NCBI RefSeq assembly: GCF_050320075.1
Contig: NZ_CP190018.1
DNA from: Escherichia coli
GTDB taxonomy: Bacteria > Pseudomonadota > Gammaproteobacteria > Enterobacterales > Enterobacteriaceae
Length of the DNA: 64,000 bases
Strand: one strand, 5' to 3'
Shown in pieces: positions 2,262 through 55,792 of this stretch (positions within the stretch are counted from its first letter, which is position 1; each line of letters opens with the position of its first letter). Position numbers and translations under genes: made by a program. The notes below the pieces were generated by a model. The model did no database searches. It was given only the letters and a program-made list of their open reading frames with translations, and was not told where the DNA came from.

Positions 2262-5200
2262 ATGACATATCAGGCAATTTTCACTGGCTGGGATGATCTG
2301 ACGATTGAAGACCTTCTGGTCGCTTACCGGAAAGCAAAAGCCGATAGCTTCTTTGAGAATACATTTCCTGTTGCTATCAAATTTGCCGAGTATGAGCAGG
2401 AATTACTTGAAAACCTGCAAAAACTCTTAGATCTTTTGCAGAGCGAAGATGGATTCAGTAGCAATAAGAAGTTGATTGGCAAATTTCGATTGTTACCGAA
2501 AAAATTAACCACAAAGAAAAAACATGAATCCCAAAATGGACACGTCCACTTTTCTAATCCTAAACGAGCAGCCGACCATTTATTTAATAATTTTGATCTG
2601 ATACCAGAGTTTCGTATTATTGGTGACTTCCCGGTTGATAGTCACATTATCTCTGCACTATGGATTAACATGGTCGGGCATAAATTTGATGCCAGCTTAG
2701 ATAACTGTTGCTATGGCGCGCGGCTAAAGCGTATTCGTAATGATGAATTATTTAGCAATGAGCAGGATAATCCATTCCATATCAGTGCCGTGGGTTCTTT
2801 TAGCCCCTACTTCCAGCCCTACCAAAAATGGCGTGGTGATGGCTTAAAAGCTATACGTGACGAGTTGGAAAAAGATCGTGACATTATCGCCGCCTCACTG
2901 GATTTAAAAAGTTACTATCATTTTATTGATCCACTGGCTATAACCTCTGATGATCTCTATAACACACTAAACATAAAACTGACTGAGGATGAAAAAGCGT
3001 TTACTGCACAGTTAGCAGTATTCTTAAAGCACTGGTCTGACGGCGCAGCGGCATTTGGAAAGAAAATAGCGTACAAAACACCTGTTATTAATGGTGGTCT
3101 GGTCATTGGATTAACAGCCAGTCGGATCATTTCAAATATATTGCTACACCATTGGGATAAATTAGTCATTGAAAAACTATCACCAATTCACTACGGTCGT
3201 TATGTCGATGATATGTTCCTTGTAATACGCGATACAGGGACAATTACTAATAATCACGAATTTATGTTATTGCTGCAAGATAGGCTTGGCAATGATTGCG
3301 TTTATTTGAAAAACGAGCAAAAACAAATATGGCAAATACAGCAGGGCGAGCATTTCCAGGGTAAGACCACCATCCAGTTACAATCCGATAAGCAAAAACT
3401 TTTCGTGCTTCAAGGGAGGGCTGGAATAGACCTGCTCGACAGTATCGAAAAGGAGATCTACGAGCTTTCTAGTGAACACCGCTTGATGCCTTCACCGGAT
3501 CAACTGGAACACTCCACCGCAGCTAAAGTCCTTTCCGCTGCCGGTAGTGTAGGTGAAAATGCCGATACTCTGCGCCGTGCGGATGGATTAACCATTCGTC
3601 GTTTGGGCTGGTCACTGCAATTACGCTACGTTGAAACACTGGCACGAGATCTGCCTCCAAGTGAATGGAAAGAACAGCGGGAAGAGTTTTATCAGTTTGC
3701 CTACAACCATATTCTTAGGGCTGATAATCTATTTGCACATTTTAGTTATCTGCCAAGGCTGCTTGGCTTTGCTATCAGTATGAATGAATGGCAGCACGCG
3801 GAAAAAATTGTACTTAAAGCTTACGAATCCATCAACCTGTTGGCATCGGTGATTACTTCAGGTAAGGAAGTGAATATAAATGGTTGCAAAACTCGAGCAG
3901 TAAATGATCTTTGGCGCTGTATAAAAGGCACATTAAGCTGGCTATTTGTTGATGCAGCGACACGATATTACAGTCCTGACAGATTATTTCTTGATAAACG
4001 TTCAAAGAAAGAAGAGTGCCTTGCGGATACATTTTTTAATCATATTTCACAAAGTCTGACGAATCTAAAGGATTTACTGGATCTTCGCTTTGATTCAGCA
4101 GATTTTTATTTAAAAGCGCCATTGGTAGCTCGAGCTGATTTAGCAAAGGAACCTTATAAACAGATCGTAAAGAGTCAGTCGGCAGAAAAACTTGTTAATC
4201 AGCGTGATAGTAAAAAAGAAGTTAAAATACTGAAATTAATGAGCGACTCATCGCTTATTGATATTGACGTTATTAAGCTATTTTTGAAATCAACCAAGAA
4301 TACCCGACTGGAAAAAGTGGCTAAAGGAAATCGTAAGAACGAAAGTTACCTACCTTACATTTTCCCTACACGTCCTTTAACACCCGCTGAAATATCAGAA
4401 CTGGCCCCCGAATGTGTTGGATTACCCTCCACATCCGACAAAAAACCAGATGAGAGACCGTCCACCATTTGGGCAAAATATACTCAAGCATTACGCGGAG
4501 TATGGATCAAACCGACGTTGCTAGCATCGGAGCAGGACTCAGATGAAGCGACAAAAAAAGCTCGGCCTAAGAAATTCATTCATATTGGCACAGACAGGAA
4601 ACATAAAGTTGTCGTTGCGCTAACCAGCATTAAAACAGAGGAGGACGACTGGGCTAAAATGGCCTGCAATAAATCTAACTTGTCCCGTTCAAGGTACCAG
4701 CGGATTTCTGAACTGGTTAATGCAACATTGAAACTATCTCCTAAACCTGATTATGTTTTATTCCCTGAGCTTTCAATCCCGTTACGCTGGGTTAACAGTA
4801 TTGCTGATCGTTTGAGTTCGGCGGGTATCAGTCTAATTGCGGGAACAGAATACCGCCACTTAGACGATAATCAACTGAAGAGTGAGGCCGTACTTGTCCT
4901 TTCAGATAACAGACTCGGCTATCCAGCGAGTGTCAAAATATGGCAACCCAAGCTGGAACCCGCCGTAGGTGAAGATGAGGCATTATTTTCAATTTATGGT
5001 AAGTCTTGGGATTCGACACTTAATGTTAAACAACGTAAGCCGGTATATATTCATCACGGCGTCAATTTTGGCGTTATGATTTGCTCTGAACTCCAGAATA
5101 GTAAAGCGAGGATCCGTTTTCAGGGCGCACTCGATGCATTAATGGTATTGAGCTGGAATAAAGATCTAGATACGTTTGCATCGTTGATTGAATCAGCAGC

Positions 5201-5471
5201 GCTGGATATTCATGCCTATACTATTTTAGTGAATAACCGAAAATACGGCGATAGTCGCGTACGTTCCCCGGCAAAAGAACCCTTTATGCGTGATATTGCT
5301 CGTGTGAAGGGCGGTGATAATGACTTTGTGGTCGCTGCAACGCTGGATATCGACTCGTTAAGGGCATTTCAGAGCAGGGCAAAACGCTGGCCTAAAGGCG
5401 GCGATAAATTCAAACCGTTACCTGAAGGATTCCAGTTGGCAAAGAACCGCAAAAAGCTACCGCCAAAATAA
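2262..5471 (+). CDS. Reverse transcriptase fused to a C-terminal nitrilase (C-N hydrolase) domain; defence-associated RT architecture (UG/Abi, DRT type 1-like)
   Basis: 1069-aa ORF. RT motifs: LDLKSYY (A), GLVIGLTASRIISNILL (B), YVDD at nt 3201-3212 (C). C-terminal FPE (E836, nt 4767-4769) and MICSE (C941, nt 5082-5084) fit the nitrilase-superfamily Glu/Cys. Confidence 0.85.
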   Translation: MTYQAIFTGWDDLTIEDLLVAYRKAKADSFFENTFPVAIKFAEYEQELLENLQKLLDLLQSEDGFSSNKKLIGKFRLLPKKLTTKKKHESQNGHVHFSNPKRAADHLFNNFDLIPEFRIIGDFPVDSHIISALWINMVGHKFDASLDNCCYGARLKRIRNDELFSNEQDNPFHISAVGSFSPYFQPYQKWRGDGLKAIRDELEKDRDIIAASLDLKSYYHFIDPLAITSDDLYNTLNIKLTEDEKAFTAQLAVFLKHWSDGAAAFGKKIAYKTPVINGGLVIGLTASRIISNILLHHWDKLVIEKLSPIHYGRYVDDMFLVIRDTGTITNNHEFMLLLQDRLGNDCVYLKNEQKQIWQIQQGEHFQGKTTIQLQSDKQKLFVLQGRAGIDLLDSIEKEIYELSSEHRLMPSPDQLEHSTAAKVLSAAGSVGENADTLRRADGLTIRRLGWSLQLRYVETLARDLPPSEWKEQREEFYQFAYNHILRADNLFAHFSYLPRLLGFAISMNEWQHAEKIVLKAYESINLLASVITSGKEVNINGCKTRAVNDLWRCIKGTLSWLFVDAATRYYSPDRLFLDKRSKKEECLADTFFNHISQSLTNLKDLLDLRFDSADFYLKAPLVARADLAKEPYKQIVKSQSAEKLVNQRDSKKEVKILKLMSDSSLIDIDVIKLFLKSTKNTRLEKVAKGNRKNESYLPYIFPTRPLTPAEISELAPECVGLPSTSDKKPDERPSTIWAKYTQALRGVWIKPTLLASEQDSDEATKKARPKKFIHIGTDRKHKVVVALTSIKTEEDDWAKMACNKSNLSRSRYQRISELVNATLKLSPKPDYVLFPELSIPLRWVNSIADRLSSAGISLIAGTEYRHLDDNQLKSEAVLVLSDNRLGYPASVKIWQPKLEPAVGEDEALFSIYGKSWDSTLNVKQRKPVYIHHGVNFGVMICSELQNSKARIRFQGALDALMVLSWNKDLDTFASLIESAALDIHAYTILVNNRKYGDSRVRSPAKEPFMRDIARVKGGDNDFVVAATLDIDSLRAFQSRAKRWPKGGDKFKPLPEGFQLAKNRKKLPPK

Positions 5472-5681
5472 GAAACTGATTTTCGCTATTAATAATCAGG
5501 GTATTTTTGCGTGAGATGTTGGTAAACATGATGTAGCCCTTGCCACTCATGACCAATCGCAGTATCTTTCTCCCGCGCCTGCAAAATCAGGCGTCGGGAT
5601 TAGCCTCCTGAAGAAATCTTATCGGCGACACATGACGCGCCAGCGTCTTTTTTTGTGTTGTTCGCACGGTTACATCTCAAT

Positions 5682-5761
5682 GGTGGGCCGGGCGGGGGCG
5701 TCGCAAGACGCGCCAGTGTCCGATAAGGCTGGTAAGGCTAACCCTGCCCGGTTCCACCACC
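5682..5761 (+). ncRNA. Relic P4-type CI-like immunity RNA (second copy, different specificity)
   Basis: The closing stem ggtgggccgggcgggg / ccctgcccggttccaccacc mirrors the resident satellite CI RNA. An internal ccgataagg...aggctaa is complementary to flanking cttatcgg / gattagcct elements at 5598-5625 and 5767-5807. Confidence 0.4.
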
Positions 5762-5817
5762 CGCGAGATTAGCCTCTCCGGTGGTGGCTTGAACACCCAC
5801 TTATCGGAGGTTGCCCT

Positions 5818-6288
5818 ATGGCTACAATCCTCACCACTGACAGCGATTTACTCGATCTATTGACCGTCCCCTTCAATGCCACCACGGATTTCACTGTCCT
5901 TGCTGACTACTGCGCCCGCTTTGCCGAAACCCTGATTGAAACCGACGATCCAGCGCTACGACTGGCGCTCTGCGGGCGGCTTCACGCGGCTCTTGCGCTA
6001 CTGCAACCCACACTACACGACCCCATCCCACCGCATCTTACCGAAAGCCTGACCGTGGATACCCTTCCCGCCACACCAGAGCACTTTATTTCCGAACCTG
6101 ATTCCTTGTGCGAATACTGCCTCGCACTACTCCAGCTTCTGCTGGAACGTCCGGCGGAACCAAAAATGGAGCAAACCCTGACCGGGCTGCTGTGTGAGCT
6201 GGTCTGGTATTTCACGGAAGGACTCAAAGCCCCACGCTGGCTGCGTACCGCCGACGGCGTAAAATTTATCAGCGAGGTGGCCGCATGA
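5818..6288 (+). CDS. Hypothetical protein (first ORF downstream of the relic CI-like cassette)
   Basis: 156-aa ORF. GGAGG SD at 5806-5810, overlapped by the seqC-like element. The stop overlaps the next ATG (ATGA). No family recognised. Confidence 0.45.
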
Positions 6289-6425
6289 TGCAACAGGACT
6301 GGCATTCCGCCGACATTATTGCGGTGCTGAAAAAGCGGGGAACGCCTCTGGCGGCACAGAGAAAAACTCATTGCGGAAGCGCTGTAAATATCGCCAGAAA
6401 TCATCTGGCCTTCAAGGTACTTTGA
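6285..6425 (+). pseudogene. Ner/Nlp-like HTH regulator, disrupted
   Basis: The first ~25 codons ([24 protein letters not shown]) resemble Ner/Nlp. The rest is out of frame: LIAEAL then a stop, with [11 protein letters not shown] readable in another frame. Confidence 0.5.
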
Positions 6426-6434
6426 TAGCAAAGG

Positions 6435-6637
6435 CAAGCAGGCTGGTTCAGTCCAGTGTTTCTCTTCTTGCATTTTCAGAAATGGGAGGCTGGGAGTCTA
6501 TCGAAATGGTTCGTCGATATGCTCACCTCGCGCCTAATCACCTTACCGAACACGCACGGCAAATAGACTCAGTCCTGAACCCATCGGTCCCAAATTTGTC
6601 CCAGTCAAAAAATAAGGAAGGTACTAATGATGTGTAA
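6435..6637 (+). pseudogene. Tyrosine integrase C-terminal fragment (P22-type Int relic)
   Basis: Clear nucleotide and protein similarity to the 3' end of int at 55507-55702 ([31 protein letters not shown] vs [31 protein letters not shown]). The N-terminal ~320 codons are missing. Confidence 0.8.
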
Positions 6638-6651
6638 CTTATTGATTTTAA

Positions 6652-6667
6652 TGGTGCGATAAGAGGA
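6652..6667 (-). other. Degenerate thrW 3'-end att copy (distal junction of the P4-like satellite)
   Basis: tggtgcgataagagga vs tggtgccgataatagga of thrW (1 deletion, 1 mismatch). Preceded by the same ttgattt(t/a)aa context seen between int and thrW at 55.7 kb. Confidence 0.5.
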
Positions 6668-6785
6668 ATGAATATTGCAAGTTAACGCATTGATTTATAA
6701 TAGATTATTATATTCAAAAAATATAACTATACACATATCTATACACACTGCGCGCATCGCTTGTTTTTCGCACAATTAAAAATAA

Positions 6786-7086
6786 GAAAAAAGTTTTTTT
6801 TCGAAAGAACTGTTCACACTGTTCACCTTTCTGTTTTCTCCTTTTATTTCAGTTTGATAGGTGGTGAATAATGGGTGAATGGTGAACATTCGATTCTTCA
6901 CCTCCGGCATTCTGCCGGTGTGACTCATACCGGTGATTAATCCCCCGTACTGAAATCACACAGGGAGAAAAAAAGTTTTTTTTGATTTGATTGTTCACAC
7001 TGTTCACCTTTCATTTTTCTCTTTTAATTTCAGTGTGATAACGGGTGAATATACGGTGAAGGGTGAACAGTGGATTGTTCACCTTC
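6786..7086. repeat. crr-like cis replication region: two ~120-bp direct repeats ~60 bp apart carrying TGTTCACC/GGTGAA iterons
   Basis: 6786-6903 and 6968-7086 align almost base for base (aaaaaagtttttttt...tgttcacactgttcaccttt...ggtgaa...ttcacct). Same architecture as P4 crr, downstream of alpha. Confidence 0.8.
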
Positions 7087-7101
7087 GGGGAATTCAGGGA
7101 T

Positions 7102-7126
7102 AAAAAAAGACCGGCAGATGCCGGTC
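7102..7126 (-). terminator. Intrinsic terminator after alpha
   Basis: gaccggc-agat-gccggtc hairpin followed by a T7 run on the minus strand, 17 nt after the alpha stop. Confidence 0.7.
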
Positions 7127-7142
7127 AGATGAGTCATGATGG

Positions 7143-9476
7143 TCAGGTTGTTGCAGGGTCGTCACATTTTGGCAGCCAGTCGCCGTAGCTTTCCTCTTTC
7201 AGCGTCAGGTTGGTCTGTATCCCCTGTTTGGTATGGCGCTTCTCGTAATTCAGTCCGTATTCCTTCAGCATCACCGGCAGCCCCAGCCCGAACATTTTCA
7301 GACTGAGTACATTCCGGTAGCCGTTTGCCTCCATGTAGGCCAGATAGGCGTGATAGAGGTATTTACGGTAATTACGCGGGATGATACTGGCGTTCCCCAT
7401 ATACATGCCGCTGGTCTGCGGCAGGGTTTCCAGATAGCCGATAAAATCAAACGTCGGGTCGGCATCCCGTTTGATGTTCAGCGCCTCGTCTGAGTTCTGC
7501 TGGGACTGAAGCAGTGACCGGGCGAGCATCGGGTCGCTGAACTTCTGCATCAGGTGACGCACGATGACCGCCAGCTCGCGGGTGATTTTGTCCTTAAGCT
7601 GCGGGTCGCGCTCCTGCGGGGCTATCTGTTCCGGGAAGTGAATAATCACCCGCCGGCGTGACACGCCGCCGCTGCGGTCGGTGAAGCGCATCGGGTTATT
7701 GTTCACGGCCAGAATTACCGCCGGGATATGCGTGGAGTATGCATCCCGGTATTTCGGGTCAACGGACACCGCATCGCCGCCGGTGATGGCCTTGAGTCCG
7801 GCACCGTCGCCGCTCCATTTTTCCTGGTCCGGCAGGCGTATCAGTGAGAAGCCAGTTAACGCGGCACGTTCACGCGGGGATTCCAGCGTCTCGATGGTGG
7901 CCGACGTGGCGTTATCCTCCCCGGCCAGCAGGGTGGCTATTTCGGCCATGATACTTTTGCCGCTGCCGCCGGGACCGGTCACCTCCAGAAAGAGCTGCCA
8001 GTCGTAGCGGTTTGCCAGCACCATAAACAGTGCGGCCAGAATCACGTCGCGTTTTTCCGCACGGCCACCGGCGGCACGGTCAAGCCAGCGCCAGAACGCG
8101 GGGGCGTGGGTCTCCAGCGTTTCACCGTCCACCGGCGGGGTGAAATCCACATCGCACAGGGTGCGCATCCAGTGTGACGGACTGTGCGGGTGGAACGTGC
8201 CGTTCTGCGTGTCGAGCACGCCGTTACGAAAGCCAATCAGGCGGCGGGAGGGGGCTTCCTGCTGCGGAATAATCAGCTTCAGGGTGTCCACCACGGAGGC
8301 CACCTTCCCGGAGGAGAACGGCGCGCGCAGACGCTGAAACAGCCCGGCCACATCCCGGGCAAAGTCCTGTGGTGGCAGCACCTTCCAGACACCATTTTCA
8401 TAACGGGACAGAAGCTGGCCGTTGGCATCGACCGCGAGCGCCTCGCCGTAATGCTCATAGATACGCATGGCCTTTTCGCTGGTACTCATGGCGGAAAACT
8501 CCGCTTCGCTCATGGTGTCGAACGGGCTTTCAGCCGGTGGCCGGATGGCATCATAAATGGCCTTACGGGTGGCTTCCCCGCCGTACTGCGTGAAGGCATC
8601 ATTCCAGTCACCGAAGACCGGCGGCAGGGCAACAACGCCCTCACACGCATCTGCGGCTGCGGCGGCTTTTTTCTGGCCGTCACCGCTGAGGTCACGGTCT
8701 GCGGCAAGGACAATCTGACAGGCCGGATGCTTCTGCCGGGCAAGGCTGGCCAGAGAAAGGAGGTTCACGGAAGAAAGCGCCACCATCACCGTTTCACCGG
8801 TCAGGTGATGTACGGTAAGTGCGGTCGCGTATCCCTCCGCTATCCACAGACGTTTTCCGGCCTGATTCTGTCCTTCAAGGGTGTGACAGGTGCCCCTGAC
8901 CTGTCCGCCTTTCAGGGTGCGCTTACGGCCGTCAGCACTGATTAACTGAAGGTTAACCAGTTCGCCGCTGTCGTCATACAGTGGCACCACAAGGTCACCG
9001 GCACGCCAGCTCACGCCACCGGCTCTGTGTGTGCCGGTCAGCATCCGGCATTCCCGGCCGGGAAAGCCCTTGCGGGTCAGGTAGGCGTTACCGGTTCCGG
9101 GACGGGTTTTCGCCATCAGGGTTTGTGCCAGTGCGGCGGCGTTCTTCCGGGCAGCGTCTGTTTCAGCACCGGCGGCAGCCGTCACTGCCGGGTCAGCCGG
9201 GGGCAGGCTGCCGGTCACGGCAGCCACCTTTGCTGCCGCGTCGGACGGGGAAACACCAAACACCTTTTCAACCAGTTTCAGGCCGTCACCGGCACCACAC
9301 TGATTGCAGTACCAGGTGCCGCGCCCCTCCCTGTCATCAAAACGGAAGCGGTCACTCCCGCCACAGACCGGACAGGGCTGATGACGGTTTTTCAGCACCT
9401 GAATCCCCAGCGCCGGGAGAATACGCGGCCAGTGGCCGAGCGCATGGCTGACGGTGGCGGTTACGTTCATTTTCAT
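7143..9476 (-). CDS. alpha: P4 alpha-type primase/helicase/origin-binding protein
   Basis: 777 aa, the same length as P4 gpalpha. N-terminal zinc-binding CPVCGG...CNQCG, TOPRIM-like core and a GPGGSGKS Walker A motif. Confidence 0.9.
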   Translation of the reverse strand: MKMNVTATVSHALGHWPRILPALGIQVLKNRHQPCPVCGGSDRFRFDDREGRGTWYCNQCGAGDGLKLVEKVFGVSPSDAAAKVAAVTGSLPPADPAVTAAAGAETDAARKNAAALAQTLMAKTRPGTGNAYLTRKGFPGRECRMLTGTHRAGGVSWRAGDLVVPLYDDSGELVNLQLISADGRKRTLKGGQVRGTCHTLEGQNQAGKRLWIAEGYATALTVHHLTGETVMVALSSVNLLSLASLARQKHPACQIVLAADRDLSGDGQKKAAAAADACEGVVALPPVFGDWNDAFTQYGGEATRKAIYDAIRPPAESPFDTMSEAEFSAMSTSEKAMRIYEHYGEALAVDANGQLLSRYENGVWKVLPPQDFARDVAGLFQRLRAPFSSGKVASVVDTLKLIIPQQEAPSRRLIGFRNGVLDTQNGTFHPHSPSHWMRTLCDVDFTPPVDGETLETHAPAFWRWLDRAAGGRAEKRDVILAALFMVLANRYDWQLFLEVTGPGGSGKSIMAEIATLLAGEDNATSATIETLESPRERAALTGFSLIRLPDQEKWSGDGAGLKAITGGDAVSVDPKYRDAYSTHIPAVILAVNNNPMRFTDRSGGVSRRRVIIHFPEQIAPQERDPQLKDKITRELAVIVRHLMQKFSDPMLARSLLQSQQNSDEALNIKRDADPTFDFIGYLETLPQTSGMYMGNASIIPRNYRKYLYHAYLAYMEANGYRNVLSLKMFGLGLPVMLKEYGLNYEKRHTKQGIQTNLTLKEESYGDWLPKCDDPATT

Positions 9477-9490
9477 GGTGTTGTTCTCCT

Positions 9491-9811
9491 TCAGTGCAGT
9501 ACCGGCGCTTTTATGTGACGGGCACAGAGTTCATCCATCACAACCAGCCCGAGAAAGGACAGCGACGGCGCGGCCTTCAGGGGGCCGGATTCCATTAAAT
9601 CTTCCAGCAGGGCACAGGCTATCTGACGCCCTTTTTCCTCACCGTGCTGGCGCAGATAAAAGCCTTCCAGCTCAGCGGCGATGGCCGCCTCCAGTGATTC
9701 AAGGGTGAGATGCGGGTAGCGGTGCTGACGTTCGCACACGGTCAGCCAGGCACAGGCGACAGCGCGACGGTAAAGGGCTGCGCGTAAGACGGGCGGTAAG
9801 GGTGTTTTCAT
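9491..9811 (-). CDS. P4 orf106-like protein
   Basis: 106-aa ORF immediately upstream of alpha, with the position and length of P4 orf106. Confidence 0.6.
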
Positions 9812-9946
9812 TTGTTTTCCTCCCTGTGACAGATGACTGCATTCCGTGCCGGTTGCATTAACTGATAAGGCATATCTGCGTCTCCTGAAGACGTGCGTAT
9901 CCCTGCGCGAATACGCACATTTAATTTTTCGGGTGTCGTTTTTTAA

Positions 9947-10402
9947 TTACAGATAATTGCGGTAACTGTTATCCGGGGTGATTTCCGGGTCAGGCTCCGT
10001 GCGGGGAATTTCCCGCCATTCCCGCGCCACCGGTGCCGCCCGGCTGGCCGGAACAGTGTCCTGCGGGTAAATATCCAGATATTTCTCCCGCCATTTCTGT
10101 AATTCCGGGTCTCCGGCCATTTCTTTCAGTACCGCATGCCGGTTTACGGGGCTGCGTTTAAACAGGTCAGGACGGTCACAGGTAAATTCCCGCAGAAAAC
10201 GCCCCAGCGGGATGTCTGTGGTGCGCCCGTCAGCGAGGATACGCACAAGGATACTGAATTTACGGCGGTACGGGTTCCAGACAATGTCCGGGCAGCGGTA
10301 CGGCATTTCCCACGGAATACCGTCTTCCAGAATGCCGACCACGGCCACATCGGGAAAACCGGCAGAACGGTAAATCTCACCGGGCTGGGGAAAATCAAAC
10401 AT
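9947..10402 (-). CDS. P4 orf151-like protein
   Basis: 151-aa ORF between epsilon and orf106, with the position and length of P4 orf151. Confidence 0.6.
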   Translation of the reverse strand: MFDFPQPGEIYRSAGFPDVAVVGILEDGIPWEMPYRCPDIVWNPYRRKFSILVRILADGRTTDIPLGRFLREFTCDRPDLFKRSPVNRHAVLKEMAGDPELQKWREKYLDIYPQDTVPASRAAPVAREWREIPRTEPDPEITPDNSYRNYL

Positions 10403-10682
10403 GCGTCCTGTCTCCCCGGTCTTTCTGCTGGGCGAGAAAATCGCGGCACAGGCCTTTGGCTTTCAGTTCATTCAGCACAAAATCAATATCTTCATTCAGG
10501 TAGCTGAAAATATGCGGAATGTAGAGCTGATGCAGGCCGGAGAGTTCACGGTGAATCAAATCACCCCCAACAAACCGGGATACGGCGCTGGCGCGGTTGA
10601 GCTTATGGTAAGCCTCAATGCTGAGGTGTTCACGGGCGTCATGACGCGCTGAGACGGTCTGAGGGGCTTTTTTATTACGCAC
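10395..10682 (-). CDS. epsilon: P4 epsilon-like antirepressor (derepresses helper prophage)
   Basis: 95 codons from a GTG at 10680-10682, with GGAGG upstream. Length and position match P4 epsilon. The ORF-track 177-aa ORF is an upstream over-extension. Confidence 0.6.
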
Positions 10683-10872
10683 GGGACACCTCCACCACCG
10701 GCAGACGGGCAGCAAGGGAGAGCACATAGTCACGGACAAGGGAACGGCGGGCGCTGCGTTCATCACCGGCGACGGTGCGAAGCATACAGATACGGGGATG
10801 ACGATCTGCGCGACGGACAGCCGCAAACACAAAGACAAATTCAGGGTGTGAGGTGGTAAGGGTTGTAGCCAT
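10675..10872 (-). CDS. Small ORF (65 aa) downstream of CI RNA; eta-position gene
   Basis: ATG at 10870-10872. Its GGAGG SD (10881-10885) lies inside the seqC-like element, as for the first translated ORF after cI in P4. Confidence 0.5.
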
Positions 10873-10883
10873 GATGGCAGCCT

Positions 10884-10924
10884 CCTTGAAGTAACAGTTA
10901 CAGCTACCACTGGAGTTCCTACGC
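10884..10924 (-). promoter_or_regulatory. seqC-like target of CI RNA
   Basis: Minus-sense gcgtaggaac...ttacttcaagg is complementary to the CI seqB ccttgaagg...ttcctac. Near-duplicate of 11106-11131. Confidence 0.65.
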
Positions 10925-11010
10925 TCATGGGTGGTAGCCCGGACGGGGGTAGGAATACCGGCCTTCAAGGAAACCGGCCAGCCCGAAGGCTGCCCCGCCC
11001 GGACCACCAT
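10925..11010 (-). ncRNA. cI: P4-type CI immunity RNA (contains seqB at 10949-10970)
   Basis: A long closing stem (atggtggtccgggcgggg / ccccgtccgggctaccac) encloses ccttgaaggccggtattcctac, which is complementary to both seqA-like and seqC-like elements. Position between PLE and epsilon. Confidence 0.65.
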
Positions 11011-11105
11011 TATCTGACAGAGGCTACGGTTTAAAAACCACAGCCAGAAAAACAGGTGTGCCGAAGCAACGACGTAAAAAAAGACGCATGGCGCGTCATA
11101 TGTCG

Positions 11106-11131
11106 CCTTGAAGTAACTCGGGTTCCTACGC
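11106..11131 (-). promoter_or_regulatory. seqA-like target of CI RNA (overlaps the RBS of a 22-codon kil-position ORF starting at 11101-11103)
   Basis: ccttgaagtaactcgggttcctacgc on the plus strand is a near-duplicate of the seqC-like element and complementary to seqB. Confidence 0.6.
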
Positions 11132-11225
11132 CCGGCTGCCGATTTTGCGGCAGCGGAAAAACTATATCCGCAAATGCCGGAAAAAGGCAAGCCAGAAAAA
11201 GGGACTTTTTGCAGAACAGGCATCA

Positions 11226-11492
11226 TCATGCGTCATACCCCCGTTGGCGTCCGGCAATGCGGCCGGCCATCCATGCGGTGACTTCAGAGTGCAGCCAGGC
11301 CACATTTTTACCGCCAAGACTCACCTGCGGCGGAAATTCCCCCTTACGGATGAGTTCATAGATGGTCGAGCGTGACAGGCCGCACAGGTGCATCACTTCC
11401 GGCAGACGTAAAAAACGCTCCTGCGTGATGTCCGGCAGCGGCATCAGTGGCGTCACAGGGGCGGGAGACGGGGAAGAAAAAACAGCTTGCAT
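11226..11492 (-). CDS. vis: Vis/AlpA-family excisionase-regulator (P4 orf88)
   Basis: 88 aa. The MerR/AlpA-type HTH ([27 protein letters not shown]) and the position between PLL and PLE match P4. Confidence 0.8.
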
Positions 11493-11594
11493 CGGGCTAC
11501 CTCGTTAATGTCCATACAGCACCGGATAAGTCCGTCCGGCTTCTGGTAGCGCTTTATTTTGTGAATATTTTCAGCAGACGCAACAGGGGGAATT

Positions 11595-11612
11595 TGTTCC
11601 GGCAACCTTACA
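11595..11612. promoter_or_regulatory. TGT-N12-ACA activator dyad of PLL-type late promoter
   Basis: tgttccggcaaccttaca. Centred ~110 nt upstream of the vis start, consistent with a -55 Ogr/Delta-type site. Confidence 0.6.
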
Positions 11613-11770
11613 ATGGCTGTGTGTTTTTTATCCATCTGGACTGGAAGGGTCTCAAAGGGTTCTGAAGGACCTGGAATTTTTTATAGTGAAATACAAATTG
11701 TTTTTTCTTATTTATTTCAGTGAATTAATAAAAATAAACAGTGATAAACAGCATAAAAAGCCCATCAACG

Positions 11771-11884
11771 GGTGAACAGTGGTGAACAGACGGTGAACAG
11801 TCATTACTGCGATTGTTCACCCTTTAACTTACTGTATTACTTATCTTTTTTCTTATGGTGAACAGAGGTGAACAGTAAAATATA
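11771..11884. repeat. P4-type ori: six GGTGAACA/TGTTCACC type I iterons
   Basis: Copies at 11771, 11781, 11793, 11814 (inverted), 11867 and 11877. Same 8-mer as in crr. An AT-rich stretch lies upstream (11690-11760). Confidence 0.8.
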
Positions 11885-11953
11885 AAAAAACAAACAGTAA
11901 GCCGGTTTTTCCTGCGACCTTTTCCTGGCTTGCCGGTCTGAGGATGAGTCTCC

Positions 11954-11971
11954 TGTGTCAGGGCTGGCACA
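11954..11971. promoter_or_regulatory. TGT-N12-ACA activator dyad of Psid-type late promoter
   Basis: tgtgtcagggctggcaca, ~80 nt upstream of the sid ATG (12044). Consistent with a -55 Delta/Ogr site. Confidence 0.65.
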
Positions 11972-12043
11972 TCTGCAATGCGTCGTGTTGCTGTCCGGTG
12001 TACGTCACAATTTTCTTAACCTGAAGTGACGAGGAGCCGGAAA

Positions 12044-12778
12044 ATGTCTGACCACACTATCCCTGAATATCTGCAACCCGCACTGGCACAACTGGAAAAG
12101 GCCAGAGCCGCCCATCTTGAGAACGCCCGCCTGATGGATGAGACCGTCACGGCCATTGAACGGGCAGAGCAGGAAAAAAATGCGCTGGCGCAGGCCGACG
12201 GAAACGACGCTGACGACTGGCGCACGGCCTTTCGTGCAGCCGGTGGTGTCCTGAGCGACGAGCTGAAACAGCGCCACATTGAGCGCGTGGCACGCCGGGA
12301 GCTGGTACAGGAATATGACAATCTGGCCGTGGTGCTGAATTTCGAACGTGAACGCCTGAAAGGGGCGTGTGACAGCACGGCCACCGCCTACCGGAAGGCA
12401 CATCATCACCTTCTGAGTCTGTATGCAGAGCATGAGCTGGAACACGCCCTGAATGAAACCTGTGAGGCGCTTGTCCGGGCAATGCATCTGAGCATTCTGG
12501 TACAGGAAAATCCGCTCGCCAACACCACCGGCCATCAGGGCTACGTCGCACCCGATAAGGCTGTCATGCAGCAGGTGAAATCATCGCTGGAACAGAAAAT
12601 TAAACAGATGCAAATCAGCCTCAGCGGCGAGCCGGTTCTCCGGCTGACCGGACTGTCAGCGGCAACACTTCCGCACATGGATTATGAGGTGGCAGGCACA
12701 CCGGCACAGCGCAAGGTGTGGCAGGACAAAATAGACCAGCAGGGAGCAGAGCTTAAGGCCAGAGGACTGCTGTCATGA
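12044..12778 (+). CDS. sid: Sid capsid size-determination (external scaffold) protein
   Basis: 244 aa from the ATG at 12044 (GAGGAG SD), the same length as P4 Sid. Helical and charged. First gene of the sid-delta-psu operon. Confidence 0.8.
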   Translation: MSDHTIPEYLQPALAQLEKARAAHLENARLMDETVTAIERAEQEKNALAQADGNDADDWRTAFRAAGGVLSDELKQRHIERVARRELVQEYDNLAVVLNFERERLKGACDSTATAYRKAHHHLLSLYAEHELEHALNETCEALVRAMHLSILVQENPLANTTGHQGYVAPDKAVMQQVKSSLEQKIKQMQISLSGEPVLRLTGLSAATLPHMDYEVAGTPAQRKVWQDKIDQQGAELKARGLLS

Positions 12779-13275
12779 TTTACTGCCCGTCGTGTGGACA
12801 TGTTGCTCACACCCGTCGCGCACATTTCATGGACGATGGCACCAAGATAATGATTGCACAGTGCCGGAATATTTATTGCTCTGCGACATTTGAAGCGAGT
12901 GAAAGCTTTTTCTCTGACAGTAAAGATTCAGGAATGGAATACATTTCAGGCAAACAGAGATACCGCGATTCACTGACGTCAGCCTCCGGCAGTATGAAAC
13001 GCCCGAAAAGAATGCTTGTTACCGGATATTGTTGTCGGAGATGTAAAGGCCTTGCACTGTCAAGAACATCGCGGCGTCTGTCTCAGGAAGTCACCGAGCG
13101 TTTTTATGTGTGCACGGATCGGGGCTGTGGTCTGGTGTTTAAAACGCTTCAGACCATCAACCGTTTCATTGTCCGCCCGGTCACGCCGGACGAACTGGCA
13201 GAACGCCTGCATGAAAAACAGGAACTGCCGCCAGTACGGTTAAAAACACAATCATATTCGCTGCGTCTGGAATGA
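12775..13275 (+). CDS. delta: Delta (duplicated Ogr-type zinc-finger late activator)
   Basis: 166 aa. Two CxxC...CxxxxC Ogr-like halves (CPSCGH...CRNIYC and CRRCKG...CTDRGC). ATGA-coupled to sid. Confidence 0.85.
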   Translation: MIYCPSCGHVAHTRRAHFMDDGTKIMIAQCRNIYCSATFEASESFFSDSKDSGMEYISGKQRYRDSLTSASGSMKRPKRMLVTGYCCRRCKGLALSRTSRRLSQEVTERFYVCTDRGCGLVFKTLQTINRFIVRPVTPDELAERLHEKQELPPVRLKTQSYSLRLE

Positions 13276-13348
13276 GGGCTGCCGGTTAACACCGGCCGTC
13301 GCCGCACACCGTATTTTTATTCTTCAGCATGATGAGAAAGAGATAACG

Positions 13349-13921
13349 ATGGAAAGCACAGCCTTACAGCAGGCCTTTGACACCTGTCAGAATAACAAAG
13401 CAGCATGGCTGCAACGCAAAAATGAGCTGGCAGCGGCCGAACAGGAATATCTGCGGCTTCTGTCAGGAGAAGGTAGAAACGTCAGTCGCCTGGACGAATT
13501 ACGCAATATTATCGAAGTCAGAAAATGGCAGGTGAATCAGGCTGCCGGTCGTTATATTCGTTCGCATGAAGCCGTTCAGCACATCAGCATCCGCGACCGG
13601 CTGAATGATTTTATGCAGCAGCACGGCACAGCACTGGCGGCCGCACTGGCACCGGAGCTGATGGGCTACAGTGAGCTGACGGCCATTGCCCGAAACTGTG
13701 CCATACAGCGTGCCACAGATGCCCTGCGTGAAGCCCTTCTGTCCTGGCTTGCGAAGGGGGAAAAAATTAATTATTCCGCACAGGATAGCGACATTTTAAC
13801 GACTATCGGATTCAGGCCTGACGCGGCTTCTGTGGATGACAGCCGTGAAAAATTCACCCCTGCGCAGAACATGATTTTTTCGCGTAAAAGTGCGCAACTG
13901 GCATCACGTCAGTCTGTGTAA
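13349..13921 (+). CDS. psu: Psu (polarity suppression / capsid decoration, Rho antagonist)
   Basis: 190 aa, the same length and position as P4 Psu. Confidence 0.8.
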   Translation: MESTALQQAFDTCQNNKAAWLQRKNELAAAEQEYLRLLSGEGRNVSRLDELRNIIEVRKWQVNQAAGRYIRSHEAVQHISIRDRLNDFMQQHGTALAAALAPELMGYSELTAIARNCAIQRATDALREALLSWLAKGEKINYSAQDSDILTTIGFRPDAASVDDSREKFTPAQNMIFSRKSAQLASRQSV

Positions 13922-14085
13922 AATTCCCCGAAAATCCGCCTGTTTTTACTGAAAAAAGCCATGCATCGATAAGGTGCATGGCTTTGCATGCGTTTTCCTG
14001 CCTCATTTTCTGCAAACCGCACCATTCCCGGCGCGGTCTGAGCGTGTCAGTGCAACTGCATTAAAACCGCCCCGCAAAGCGGGCG

Positions 14086-14104
14086 GGCGAGGCGGGGAAA
14101 GCAC
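14086..14104. other. P2/P4-type cos cohesive-end sequence
   Basis: ggcgaggcggggaaagcac matches the 19-nt P2/P4 cohesive end as I recall it. Located after psu as in P4. Confidence 0.7.
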
Positions 14105-14122
14105 TGCGCGCAACAATGATGA

Positions 14123-15517
14123 TTATGATTTCATTTTATCTGCAATATCTTCTAAGGAATCAAAGAATGCTTTGACAAAGTTGTCTTTATTAACAGTAGT
14201 AAAGTTTTGATTGTAAAATCCTACACATGCAGAAAAAATTGCTCTGCAAGTTAGCTCATTATATTTAGATGAATATAATGGTTCGACTCCACGATACACG
14301 GACCAAGAACCATGAGCTATATCAGACCTAGTCTTATACATTTCCTGAGCCACTCTAGCCCATTTTTTTTCATCTTGATAATAAATAGAAACTAATGAAG
14401 AAACACGACTTACGAAGTTCTTTGTTGTAGATGAATCCTTTTTTTCGCTACTTAGACTAACCAGCCGTTCAAGAGCCGTTGTTAATTTTACTATACGAGA
14501 ACTTTCATCCTTATCCTGTTGTGCGCTACTAAATAAATAGATAGCATCAATTAGCCTGTCTGCAATTACAGAGTTTTCATGAGGTTCTATCGCCAACTCT
14601 ATTAACCGAGAAAGAACTAACCCTAAGTCAGATTTGTAATCATCTTCAAACTTATTCCAAAACTCACCGCTATTGGCTATAGTCCCTTTAGTTGAGTAAT
14701 GATAGTTAAACATTTCGTTTGGTTTCTTGGAAAGATAAAAGCCGTCATAATTTGGGTAAGGATCTGTTGATATACTTAAAAAGTATGGGGAGATATTATA
14801 GTGCACACCAAATAGCTGTAGTATCCCAACCACAAAACATGCAATATTTTTAGCGATTCTCTGCCTACTTAACTTAGAGCGTTTGCTAACAGGGATTTTT
14901 AGGTAGTGTTTATAATGAAATTTATGAGAAGAACAAAATTTCTTAGCTAAATCAAGTTGTTGCTCAGTAAAATCATCACTAATAGTTAAGTGCATTTTTT
15001 CTGCCGATATAATATCAACTCGGCCAATAGACATTATATCTCGTTCCAACCCGTGAGCTAAAATAGGATAATAAAAATCCTCTTCAGACATTTCTCTCCT
15101 TGTTAGTTTTAATGTTTTATTTAGGAGGATAGTACATCCACTCCTGTCGCAACTGCCGTTCTCAACCCAAATATGCATAAACAATATTTTCTTAAGATTA
15201 CTTAAAAATTCATCGGTAGTAACTAGCATTTCTAAGCGATTTGATTTTATAAATCTAGCCGAAATAGCATATAACTTCTCATAAGAGGCATATGATAGAT
15301 GAATTTGAGTTCTAGAAAGATCTGTTCTTCCTTTTATTAGTTCATATGGTGCATCTATGGTCATTCCCAATGAACCAAAATTACCATTATATTCTTTTTT
15401 GTAAAATTCCATAAAATTAGATGAGGATGTTAACTCTTTATTTATTCTAACAGCCTCATCAAGAATAAATTTAAAATCTTTAACGTCTTCCAAACTGGCA
15501 CTCATCATTTTCACCAT
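14123..15517 (-). CDS. Orphan cargo protein with C-terminal HEPN-like Rx4H motif; candidate anti-phage effector
   Basis: 464-aa ORF, markedly AT-rich. Fills the cos-int slot. R397-S-D-I-A-H402 (nt 14312-14329) sits in a helical C-terminal region. Start ambiguous (15517, 15508 or 15505) and overlaps the int 3' end. Confidence 0.6.
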   Translation of the reverse strand: MVKMMSASLEDVKDFKFILDEAVRINKELTSSSNFMEFYKKEYNGNFGSLGMTIDAPYELIKGRTDLSRTQIHLSYASYEKLYAISARFIKSNRLEMLVTTDEFLSNLKKILFMHIWVENGSCDRSGCTILLNKTLKLTRREMSEEDFYYPILAHGLERDIMSIGRVDIISAEKMHLTISDDFTEQQLDLAKKFCSSHKFHYKHYLKIPVSKRSKLSRQRIAKNIACFVVGILQLFGVHYNISPYFLSISTDPYPNYDGFYLSKKPNEMFNYHYSTKGTIANSGEFWNKFEDDYKSDLGLVLSRLIELAIEPHENSVIADRLIDAIYLFSSAQQDKDESSRIVKLTTALERLVSLSSEKKDSSTTKNFVSRVSSLVSIYYQDEKKWARVAQEMYKTRSDIAHGSWSVYRGVEPLYSSKYNELTCRAIFSACVGFYNQNFTTVNKDNFVKAFFDSLEDIADKMKS

Positions 15518-16685
15518 TTAAATTAATAATAAAATCACTATACCACTGCATCATTTTCTTTCGATCTTCTATATACTGTGCATGATTATATACACCACGT
15601 ATCGTGTTTTTATCCACATGAGCCAACTGCATTTCAATCCAAGCAGTATTAAAACCATTTTCATGGAGTATTGTTGATAATGTATGCCTAAATCCATGTC
15701 CTGTAAGTTTTCCCGCATAGCCTATGCGTTTGATAAGTTGATTAACACTTGCCTCACTCATAGGTTTGTTTGGATCATTCCGTCCCGGGAAAACATAACG
15801 ATAATTTCCTGTCATAGATTTAAGTTCATTAAGAAAGCCTAATACCTGGGTCGATAAGGGGACTAGGTGCGGCCTACGCATTTTCATTTTTTCGGCAGGA
15901 ATTTCCCAAATAGCGTTGTCCAGATCAAACTCTTGCCATAATGCCGCTCGCAACTCGATAGTTCTAACCCCAGTAACCATCAATAATTTTGTGGCAATCT
16001 GAACAAGTCGGCTTCCTGCATAACTATCTAAAGCACGCAGAAAATCAGGTATCTCATCTGATTTTAAGAAAGGAAAATGATTTGATTTGTGTACTTCGAG
16101 GGCACTGGACAGATCTGCCGCAGGATTAAACTCTGCTCTTCCGGTAGCAATAGCATATCGAAAAACCTCTGAGCAACGTTGCCGCACTTTGCGCATTTTC
16201 TCCAATGCACCACGTTTCTCAATTTTACGCAGCACATTTAGCAATTCTAGCGGTTTAATTTCCCCTACAGGCCTCGTCCCTACATACGGAAAAATATCAT
16301 TTTGGAACGCCTCAATAATATCTGAGGCATACCCAGCAGACCATTTTGCCGACTTCATCTGATGCCACTCTCTGGCAATCTTTTCGAATGCGTTCTCAGA
16401 TTGAATTCGTAATGCTAATTTTTGTTCTTTTCGAACCTCACTAGGATTTTTTCCCTCGGCCACTATTTTTCTGGCCTCATCACGGCGGGCGCGAGCTTCA
16501 GCAAGTGTGATCGTTGGATAAACACCAAGCGAGATCATTTTAGGTTTACCTGCATAGCGATAACGAAATCGCCAGCTTTTACTTCCATTTGGCTCTACAA
16601 GTAAAGACAACCCTTGCCCATCCCCAAGTGTATAGGCTTTAGCTTCAGGTTTAGCACGGCGAATCTGCATATCATTTAGGGGCAT
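15480..16685 (-). CDS. int: Tyrosine integrase, P4-Int family (DUF4102-type N-terminus)
   Basis: 401 aa. N-terminal LSLLVEPNGSKSWRFRYRYAGK arm-binding-type domain. C-terminal HGFRHT...LAHVDKNTIRGVYNHA catalytic region. Adjacent to the att copy. Confidence 0.9.
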   Translation of the reverse strand: MPLNDMQIRRAKPEAKAYTLGDGQGLSLLVEPNGSKSWRFRYRYAGKPKMISLGVYPTITLAEARARRDEARKIVAEGKNPSEVRKEQKLALRIQSENAFEKIAREWHQMKSAKWSAGYASDIIEAFQNDIFPYVGTRPVGEIKPLELLNVLRKIEKRGALEKMRKVRQRCSEVFRYAIATGRAEFNPAADLSSALEVHKSNHFPFLKSDEIPDFLRALDSYAGSRLVQIATKLLMVTGVRTIELRAALWQEFDLDNAIWEIPAEKMKMRRPHLVPLSTQVLGFLNELKSMTGNYRYVFPGRNDPNKPMSEASVNQLIKRIGYAGKLTGHGFRHTLSTILHENGFNTAWIEMQLAHVDKNTIRGVYNHAQYIEDRKKMMQWYSDFIINLNGENDECQFGRR

Positions 16686-16849
16686 GTGTATAGAATTCCA
16701 AAATCGAACAGGAACATATACATAATCCTATACACATTTAGTACTGGATTCTACTGGAAGGTTATGGACTAACACGGACAACGATAACAAAAAATCTTTT
16801 ATAAAACAGTATGCTTATGGACAAATACGGACGTTTGAAGAAGTTGGGA

Positions 16850-55716: not shown

Positions 55717-55792
55717 TGGTGCCGATAATAGGAGTCGAACCTACGACCTTCGCATTACGAATGCGCTGCTCTACCAACTGAGCTATATCGGC
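55717..55792 (-). tRNA. thrW: tRNA-Thr (CGU)
   Basis: The 76-nt reverse complement reads GCCGATATAGCTCAGTTGGTAGAGCAGCGCATTCGTAATGCGAAGGTCGTAGGTTCGACTCCTATTATCGGCACCA, a cloverleaf with a CGT anticodon and encoded CCA. Confidence 0.95.

Follow-up and report, generated by a model that had tools for sequence, protein, structure and literature searches.

A 64-kb stretch of Escherichia coli DNA (hereafter the window, to whose positions all coordinates refer) carries at 5540–5820 what is, judged by its sequence, a complete and intact copy of the known IsrK/seqA–C4/CI antisense RNA switch with a pairing code of its own. The switch stands directly 5' of a gene for a conserved protein of 156 amino acids (aa), designated ORF156, and most probably represents the control region of a truncated tRNA-integrating defence island from a widespread family distinct from P4, in which the C4 RNA would block translation of ORF156. 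The IsrK–C4 pair is the immunity system of P4, and structurally similar systems are found in P1, P7, and N15 (PMC3632133). The window also contains a full P4-like satellite (approximately 6668–16700; hereafter the resident satellite) with a cassette of the same kind, and a preliminary description of this DNA placed the other copy at 5598–5820 and regarded it as an orphan second P4-type cassette. That it is a second cassette of the seqA–CI (IsrK–C4) type with its own specificity and no accompanying alpha, sid, or delta proved right; that it came from a P4 satellite did not.

This assignment is based on direct observation of RNA family membership, fold, promoter and terminator motifs, three-way complementarity with its covariation, and gene context. 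For comparison, relatives were gathered via ORF156, and 61 distinct modules were aligned, from which the pairing boxes a1, b1, b', a', and a2/b2 were read off. The promoter layout, TTGnnn-17-TATCTT with a 17-nucleotide (nt) spacer, is kept in 55 of these modules. The leader RNA that follows consists, in this order, of a 5' hairpin, a hairpin presenting box a1, the unpaired box b1, and an intrinsic terminator (5634–5654), which is made of a hairpin at 5634–5647 and the run TTTTTTT; the T-run is kept in 52 of the 61 modules. The leader combines a score above the gathering score of the IsrK family with an upstream promoter and a 3' intrinsic terminator, both conserved. A short open reading frame (ORF) beginning with MTRQRLFLCC (ATG at 5632), which had been described at this place, is not a conserved gene: its ATG is situated at the base of the terminator hairpin, and the frame is not conserved.

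The C4 element (89 nt) is built of a 17-bp closing stem around two hairpins, and its shape is that of the resident satellite RNA. Its fold energy of −51.1 kcal/mol (z = −4.2) was equalled by none of 200 shuffled sequences, and it scored 99.1 bits against a covariance model built in this analysis. When the fold was projected onto 53 homologues, 99.7% of the cells in its 27 pairs were paired, and double changes were seen in 12 pairs; none of 500 shuffles reached so high a value, and slid controls were 32–46% paired. The score, the stem-plus-two-hairpin fold with covariation, and two exposed boxes with an upstream and a downstream site all place the element in the C4 family of Rfam. The preliminary description, which located its sequence features within 1–2 nt of where we find them, had proposed that the element at 5682–5761 is a CI-type RNA mirroring the resident copy; the RF01695 match at 5676–5764 and the shared fold shape agree with this. 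Folding and comparison with a covariance model, the check that it suggested, returned a CI-type fold (71.1 bits for RF01695), which answers the concern that the fold might be incompatible with such RNAs. Taken alone, the cassette is a typical representative of two curated RNA families, and its specificity is its own.

The same region is annotated as protein-coding in RefSeq, in which coding sequences (CDSs) called 'ash family protein' sit on the C4 RNA genes of both cassettes (5608–5772; 10897–11229 in the resident satellite). Among the homologous modules, the C4 region contains 1-nt indels at alignment columns 13, 46, and 78, and therefore no conserved reading frame exists there. PF10554 serves as the 'epsilon' marker in a finder of P4-like satellites (PMC8628076). 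In the core set of P4-like markers that we used (int, psu, delta, sid, alpA, 'epsilon', and alpha), the ash/PF10554 call over the C4 RNA at 5676–5764 is the only one that would register, namely as 'epsilon'. Calls of this kind could yield spurious satellite-component matches and mislead annotation. Fusion proteins of ash and ORF156 exist among database entries.

The C4 RNA exposes two boxes: b', CCGATAAG (5720–5727), lies in the hairpin 2 loop, and a', AGGCTAA (5735–5741), in an unpaired stretch. The target pattern, which is the reverse complement of CCGATAAG plus AGGCTAA and reads TTAGCCT-N(8-36)-CTTATCGG, has exactly two matches in the 64 kb, at 5600–5625 and 5769–5807, as compared with 0.00 in shuffled sequence. 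The former lies in the leader. In the latter, box b2 (5800–5807) overlaps the Shine–Dalgarno sequence GGAGG (5806–5810), 7 nt 5' of the ORF156 ATG at 5818, and across the aligned modules b2 is followed directly by GGAGG. Both the seqA–seqB–seqC layout, with two flanking bipartite elements complementary to the RNA, and the overlap of the second element with the GGAGG of the 156-aa ORF had been noticed before, and both were confirmed.

The boxes of the RNA and of both targets co-vary three ways across the 61 modules. In 52 of them, each of the four pairings between boxes is a perfect Watson–Crick run of at least 7 nt, as against 3.6% of non-self combinations, and the complementarity is thus conserved in homologous loci, a point on which the preliminary description had made its interpretation depend. 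Approximately 35 a × b combinations occur among the 61 modules. The a alleles include TTAGCCT, TTGGTCT, TTGACCT, TTGGAAC, TTGGCAT, TTAGCAT, and GTAGGAA, and the b alleles include CTTATCGG, GTTACAGG, CTTACTGG, CTCACTGA, CATACTGG, TTTGTTGG, CTCATCGG, and CTTAGTGG. Compensatory swaps are seen even among the closest relatives: relative to the window, the module of E. coli Ecol_743 has b changed at all three places (CCTGTAAC / GTTACAGG), and that of PapRG-06-5 has a changed at all three. The immI c4 system of P1 and P7, which controls icd–ant, likewise uses two-box recognition by a' and b', has two targets of which the downstream one lies over the ribosome-binding site (RBS), and matches RF01695. 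Heteroimmunity between P1 and P7 arises by coordinated box changes. However, the diversity of specificities is far larger in the ORF156 modules, and, unlike immI, the cassette described here belongs to a chromosomal island and heads an operon without an antirepressor.

The resident satellite provides a direct comparison. Between the two cassettes, the boxes are wholly different, as the preliminary description had noted: cognate boxes pair over 7–8 nt, whereas the longest complementary run between the ORF156 cassette and the resident one is 3 nt in every combination. By a crude estimate, cognate duplexes have energies of −30 to −33 kcal/mol and non-cognate duplexes −14 to −24 kcal/mol. Because the boxes differ completely, no cross-talk is expected, and the two switches should ignore each other. 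In other respects, the ORF156 cassette resembles P4 immunity closely: both RNA families are present above their gathering scores, the order of promoter, leader with the first target, stem-closed RNA, and RBS target is the same, and the downstream gene opens with seven codons that closely resemble those in the resident copy. ORF156 starts with MATILTT (5818–5838), and an unrelated Icd-like ORF (65 aa) in the resident satellite starts with MATTLTT (10852–10872, minus strand); most of the 61 modules share the start ATGGCTAC. From this likeness between unrelated genes, the portable RNA module seems to take in the initial codons of whichever gene it controls. The differences from P4 lie in the boxes and in the surroundings. 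ORF156 and a Ner-like helix–turn–helix (HTH) gene are found downstream in place of kil/eta, epsilon, orf151, and alpha of P4; the AlpA/Vis gene that lies upstream in P4-like elements is absent; and the element that hosts the ORF156 cassette has no replication or capsid-redirecting genes.

The surroundings of ORF156 in other bacteria indicate where the cassette belongs. One genome per species was scanned for ORF156, and 79 loci were found, of which 72 were full-length. Within 10 kb of ORF156, none of these other-species loci has a homologue of the resident satellite proteins alpha, sid, delta, psu, orf151, or DUF5375, and no alpha, sid, delta, or psu lies beside the ORF156 cassette in the window. 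In its intact form, the backbone, which we define here as the ORF156-type tRNA island, consists of variable defence cargo, IsrK–C4, an ORF of 153–156 aa, a Ner-like HTH_35 gene, and a PF12835 recombinase gene, with a P4-family integrase gene by a tRNA. In 60 of the 72 full-length loci, a C4-type element shares the strand of the ORF and is located approximately 55 nt 5' of it; of the same 72 loci, HTH_35 is present in 45, the PF12835 gene in 35, and the integrase gene in 40. The HTH_35 gene (90.6 bits) overlaps the stop codon of the ORF156 homologue; the PF12835 protein (294 aa) comprises Phage_int_SAM_2 and Integrase_1 (205.9 bits); and the integrase gene, on the opposite strand, is separated from tRNA-Phe, Asn, Thr, or Asp by approximately 160 nt. 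The cargo includes AbiE, DUF4747, TacAT, and an AAA_23/MComp1/Trypsin_2 gene set. A complete island of approximately 10 kb in Klebsiella sits between host genes and has nothing beyond backbone and cargo.

These loci bear on the first of two origins originally offered for the cassette, namely that it is all that is left of a second P4-like satellite from which alpha, ori, sid, and cos were deleted. An RNA cassette of the P4 CI/seqA type, an adjoining tyrosine recombinase fragment and tRNA junction, and the likeness of MATILTT to the MATTLTT of the resident Icd-like ORF would all fit such an origin. It is contradicted by the lack of satellite genes in all 79 loci, by complete islands bounded by host genes that hold only cargo, switch, ORF156, HTH_35, PF12835, and integrase genes, and by ORF156 itself, which has no PHROG match and which, on comparison, proved unrelated to P4 orf151, a relationship that we had considered. 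Given that satellite genes are missing from all 79 loci and that the intact backbone is a different one, their absence is, as gene content indicates, native to the ORF156 island family and not caused by decay. A second P4 satellite is thus largely refuted as the source, and we regard it as extremely improbable.

Several ORF156 loci depart from the common arrangement. In tRNA-Asn islands with the HTH_35/PF12835/integrase backbone (locus L009 at 9841–9925, and also L011 and L020), a different RNA module, which matches the Rfam family sRNA-Xcc1 (RF02221, 69.5 bits), occupies the slot of C4. Sodalis sp. RH13 (L053/L055, 8525–8610 and 9836–9921) has two tandem C4 copies 5' of one ORF156 homologue, and the a1 box of the first copy, TTAGCAT, mismatches its own a' box.

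ORF156, the first gene under the switch, belongs to a family of 646 homologous protein clusters across Enterobacterales and is present in 1,328 of 5,426 complete E. coli genomes. The homologues are 153–156 aa long, with ratios of nonsynonymous to synonymous substitution rates (dN/dS) of 0.09–0.24. Its AlphaFold model (pLDDT 77) predicts a helical bundle with a small C-terminal beta-hairpin and shows no membrane or nuclease features, and searches of Pfam, PHROG, PADLOC, NCBIfam, and PDB gave no match.

In the window, IsrK–C4 lies directly 5' of ORF156 (5575–6288), and an HTH_35 gene overlaps the ORF156 stop codon, as in the other islands, here as a pseudogene that the HTH_35 protein of locus L087, an intact E. 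coli island at tRNA-Asn (CP057259), matches in two frames by tblastn (Table 1). In L087, approximately 870 nt separate the HTH_35 gene from the PF12835 gene. In the window, the PF12835 gene and the integrase gene are absent, as determined by tblastn with the L087 proteins, so that the island there is a truncated representative of the ORF156-type family that has lost all genes after ORF156. The recombinase fragment at 6434–6637 was considered as a remnant of either gene and rejected, since neither of the two L087 proteins matched it by tblastn; it is the C-terminus of another recombinase, probably left by an earlier tenant of thrW. In strain 7/2, AbiEii–AbiEi, the 1069-aa reverse transcriptase, the cassette, ORF156, the HTH pseudogene, and the recombinase fragment are followed directly by tRNA-Thr (thrW), and strains 7/2 and Ecol_743 share this thrW layout. 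Other carriers, besides 7/2, are AR_0067 and YZLc1-3. Identity of the window with other strains stops at 6668. In the window genome, insertion of the P4-like satellite and of a phage has since separated the island from tRNA-Thr, now found at 55720–55792, so that three elements are stacked at thrW. In Serratia (L023), the order AbiE–reverse transcriptase–C4–ORF156 is the same, with 81–90% aa identity for AbiE and reverse transcriptase. In Ecol_743 (L003, 994–8933), a type I restriction–modification system (hsdRMS) occupies the slot of the reverse transcriptase between conserved flanks, and the stretch from AbiEi to the IsrK promoter thus behaves as a cargo hotspot.

Table 1. Features of the window that belong to the ORF156 cassette, its island, and the resident cassette.
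Feature	Position	Strand	Remarks
Sigma-70-type promoter	5540–5568	+	TTGCCA-17 nt-TATCTT; sole promoter-like site within 5400–6700
IsrK/seqA-type leader RNA	5575–5653	+	Rfam RF01394, 68.8 bits (gathering score 50)
Upstream target site	5600–5625	+	a1 TTAGCCT 5600–5606; b1 CTTATCGG 5618–5625
C4/CI-type antisense RNA	5676–5764	+	Rfam RF01695, 71.1 bits (gathering score 45); full-length model match 1–87
Downstream target site	5769–5810	+	a2 TTAGCCT 5769–5775; b2 CTTATCGG 5800–5807
ORF156	5818–6288	+	First gene under the switch and sole intact one here; conserved protein
AbiEii	257–1177	−	Pfam; defence cargo of the same island
AbiEi	1164–1967	−	Pfam; defence cargo of the same island
1069-aa RT_UG5-nitrilase DRT (reverse transcriptase)	2262–5471	+	PADLOC, E = 0, 1034 bits; defence cargo of the same island
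Ner-like HTH_35 pseudogene	6285–6440	+	Internal deletion, frameshift, and stop; frameshifted in RefSeq
Tyrosine recombinase C-terminal fragment	6434–6637	+	RefSeq pseudogene
Degenerate copy of tRNA-Thr 3' end	6644–6668		Old island/tRNA junction; resident P4-like satellite starts here
Resident C4 RNA	10927–11014	−	Rfam, 86.1 bits
Resident isrK leader	11077–11154	−	Rfam
Resident IsrK–C4 cassette (for comparison)	10927–11167	−	Boxes CCTTGAAGG / TTCCTAC

The resident satellite comprises alpha, the DUF5375 gene, orf151, the Icd-like gene, C4, isrK, AlpA, sid, delta, psu, HEPN cargo, and an integrase gene. The cargo is a 464-aa HEPN-domain gene (14123–15517, minus strand) without a PADLOC match, located in the slot between psu and int, a known defence hotspot of P4. 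The prophage between the satellite and tRNA-Thr (approximately 17000–55700) carries tail-spike/head-binding and acyltransferase genes according to RefSeq.

We infer transcription, processing, a translational block, polarity, and a mobilisation role of the downstream operon to be connected as follows. The promoter would act constitutively and give rise to short leader RNAs that end at the terminator, along with read-through transcripts, which would be processed into a C4 RNA of approximately 85 nt. Its b' and a' boxes would then pair with a2/b2, cover the RBS of ORF156, and stop translation. In intact islands, the untranslated mRNA would terminate early through polarity, and the HTH_35/PF12835 operon would stay off. 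The a1/b1 copy in the leader may aid termination, as in the P4 model, or act as a decoy that titrates C4 and frees the mRNA, as in the IsrK model of Gifsy-1. With its private code, the switch would neither see nor be seen by the resident satellite, which, like the phage, would have been inserted later between the truncated island and the tRNA. The only output left in cis in the window would be ORF156.

Gifsy-1 of Salmonella offers the nearest precedent for such a course. There, IsrK/STnc1160 controls the downstream operon, and IsrK is a structural homologue of the P4 seqA RNA (PMC4825925). By analogy with the isrK–orf45(STnc1160)–anrP region, the ORF156 cassette would produce a short terminated IsrK and a read-through mRNA from one promoter, a processed stable RNA 3' of IsrK that is complementary to it, and a downstream gene that is translationally silent unless the balance shifts (PMC4825925). 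In contrast, the C4-like region of Gifsy-1 is overlapped by a translated orf45, to which anrP is translationally coupled (PMC4825925), whereas the indels rule out a conserved ORF over C4 in the ORF156 modules, and the output is ORF156 rather than an antirepressor.

The second origin offered in the preliminary description was that of a stand-alone RNA immunity module, retained by selection because it silences in trans incoming elements with matching seqA/seqC. Trans-acting immunity is an established function of the P4 CI and P1 C4 RNAs; the promoter, RNA, and boxes are intact despite the decay of the remaining island; and the many specificity alleles imply that cross-immunity matters in the island family. 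However, this idea found no support in a search for elements that could be excluded. The a'+b' combination was found in no other element among the 5,426 complete E. coli genomes, IMG/VR, and the 61 modules: in the E. coli genomes, a 35-nt search gave as comparable matches the cassette itself and an allele with b' CACTAAG, and an exact-pattern scan of the IMG/VR viral contigs gave no element of matching specificity. Moreover, the 64-kb window contains no target site beyond the cassette's own two, and the relatives lack a replication module that could be the object of exclusion. We therefore consider selection for immunity in trans improbable, and retain the reading of the cassette as an island control region.

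A different question is whether the cassette is still in use. It may be an inert relic that is intact merely because the truncation is recent, and that will decay. The HTH_35 pseudogene and the loss of the PF12835 and integrase genes agree with this, as does the further decay in other lineages, in which C4 or the ORF156 N-terminus is deleted; furthermore, approximately 257 E. coli genomes carry copies at least 99% identical to that in the window, so that intactness is of little weight. The Ecol_743 type argues otherwise: it has the truncated layout of the window copy and is present in approximately 545 genomes, and its RNA module and ORF156 have diverged (83% nt and 94% aa identity), yet the three box copies match and ORF156 is intact. 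IsrK–C4–ORF155 trios also persist alone, with perfect matching, in an unrelated RHS/type VI secretion system (T6SS) context, although this argument from persistence is weakened by the fact that the loci were ascertained via ORF156 or C4. On balance, an inert relic is unlikely, but we give it some weight. The trios concerned are those of E. coli PapRG-06-5 and S10 (L004, 9121–9726; L090, 6860–7569), which adjoin ISEc1, RHS, and T6SS genes; each has another specificity, and all of their boxes match. A mosaic is evident when 6270–6680 of the window is compared with 9728–10140 of L003: the HTH pseudogenes are near-identical, the recombinase fragments are much more diverged, and the RNA modules are 83% identical. 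As far as these alignments go, this points to recombination between alleles of the two truncated thrW islands.

Survival of the promoter–RNA–ORF trio in several decayed contexts could also be explained by addiction, with ORF156 being toxic in the manner of P4 Kil or P1 Icd and C4 serving as its antisense antitoxin. At the position of ORF156, P4 has kil and P1 has icd, both of them toxic, and growth arrest is the outcome of the Gifsy-1 module. Against this, derivatives in seven species (L012, L050, L054, L059, L060, L065, and L067) have no C4 but keep the promoter, the leader 5' hairpin, and full-length ORF156. In these derivatives, the leader 5' hairpin is fused to the a2/b2 region approximately 300 nt 5' of position 10001, and C4 was apparently lost when the direct repeats a1/a2 or b1/b2 recombined, which presumably leaves ORF156 unrepressed. 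A potent toxin would not tolerate the loss of C4, unless a matching C4 acts in trans, and strong toxicity is therefore hard to reconcile with these loci. ORF156 also has no PADLOC match and lacks membrane and nuclease features. Retention of the trio in decayed loci was rejected as decisive evidence for addiction, given the ascertainment via ORF156 or C4 and the existence of C4-less derivatives, and we find an addiction module very doubtful.

Several points weigh against the view that the cassette is the control region of a truncated island in which C4 blocks ORF156 translation. Transcription, processing, and repression are deduced from motifs and from the precedent of P4, P1, and Gifsy-1, and for a1/b1 the two alternative roles, termination aid and decoy, both stand. 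No C4 match was found in 12 of the 72 full-length loci (in one of them, L024, the upstream region is masked, and a partial C4 3' end is still seen), and the switch is therefore dispensable for ORF156. The downstream operon is dead in the window, where the switch may be a recently stranded relic that is no longer used, and the approximately 257 near-identical E. coli copies are too young for their intactness to prove selection. Since the copies in the window and in Ecol_743 are mosaics, the truncated state cannot be credited with the low dN/dS of ORF156, and for this reason we rejected that ratio as a sign of selection after truncation. ORF156 has generic structural neighbours only, its fold being a generic helical bundle, and the basis for regarding the product of the PF12835 gene as a putative MOB_M relaxase is a Pfam signature.

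Among mobile elements, the ORF156 islands are best compared with the 'integrase-only' defence islands that Hochhauser et al. described at E. coli tRNA hotspots, and for which the available passages of that paper leave mobilisation unexplained (PMC10121019). Both are inserted at tRNA genes, carry defence cargo (AbiE, DRT, and restriction–modification systems) and an integrase, and have no phage or conjugation machinery, and we infer that the ORF156 islands belong among them. The same passages name no IsrK–C4 switch and no ORF156/HTH_35 backbone. PF12835 is the signature used for the atypical relaxase of the MpsA type in SGI1 (PMC10484663), and such MOB_M relaxases are reported to be the commonest chromosomal relaxases, often annotated as integrases (bioRxiv 10.64898/2026.01.13.699239). 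The terms 'small RNA' and 'antisense' do not occur in the latter study. Intact relatives of the window island carry a PF12835 protein, a putative relaxase by its signature, and in this they resemble MOB_M/MpsA-type integrative mobilizable elements such as SGI1. Homologues of the PF12835 protein were also found on plasmids, some of approximately 5 kb, but they yielded no link to a characterised MOB_M relaxase, all of them being annotated only as integrase-domain proteins. The sgm-sRNA of SGI1 was considered as a homologue of the IsrK–C4 switch and rejected, as the SGI1 paper gave no sign of relatedness.

It is possible, and we propose it only tentatively, that IsrK–C4, ORF156, HTH_35, and PF12835 together form the conserved control and mobilisation module of 'integrase-only' islands at tRNA-Phe, Asn, Thr, and Asp throughout Enterobacterales, that these islands are silenced by P4/P1-type RNA immunity with dozens of specificities that avoid cross-repression between co-resident islands, and that the window copy is a fossil of it. 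Within the island literature that was text-searched, in so far as its text was available, the ORF156 island family had not previously been tied to the IsrK–C4 switch. The approximately 35 box combinations in 61 modules constitute a clean natural data set on the diversification of antisense specificity. An RNA immunity switch of the P4/P1 type cannot serve to mark satellites or phages, as it also heads widespread small tRNA-inserted defence islands; ORF156 is present in almost a quarter of the complete genomes of E. coli and also in numerous other genera. If the PF12835 gene encodes a true MpsA-type relaxase, the switch would offer a direct experimental handle on the activation and movement of 'integrase-only' defence islands.

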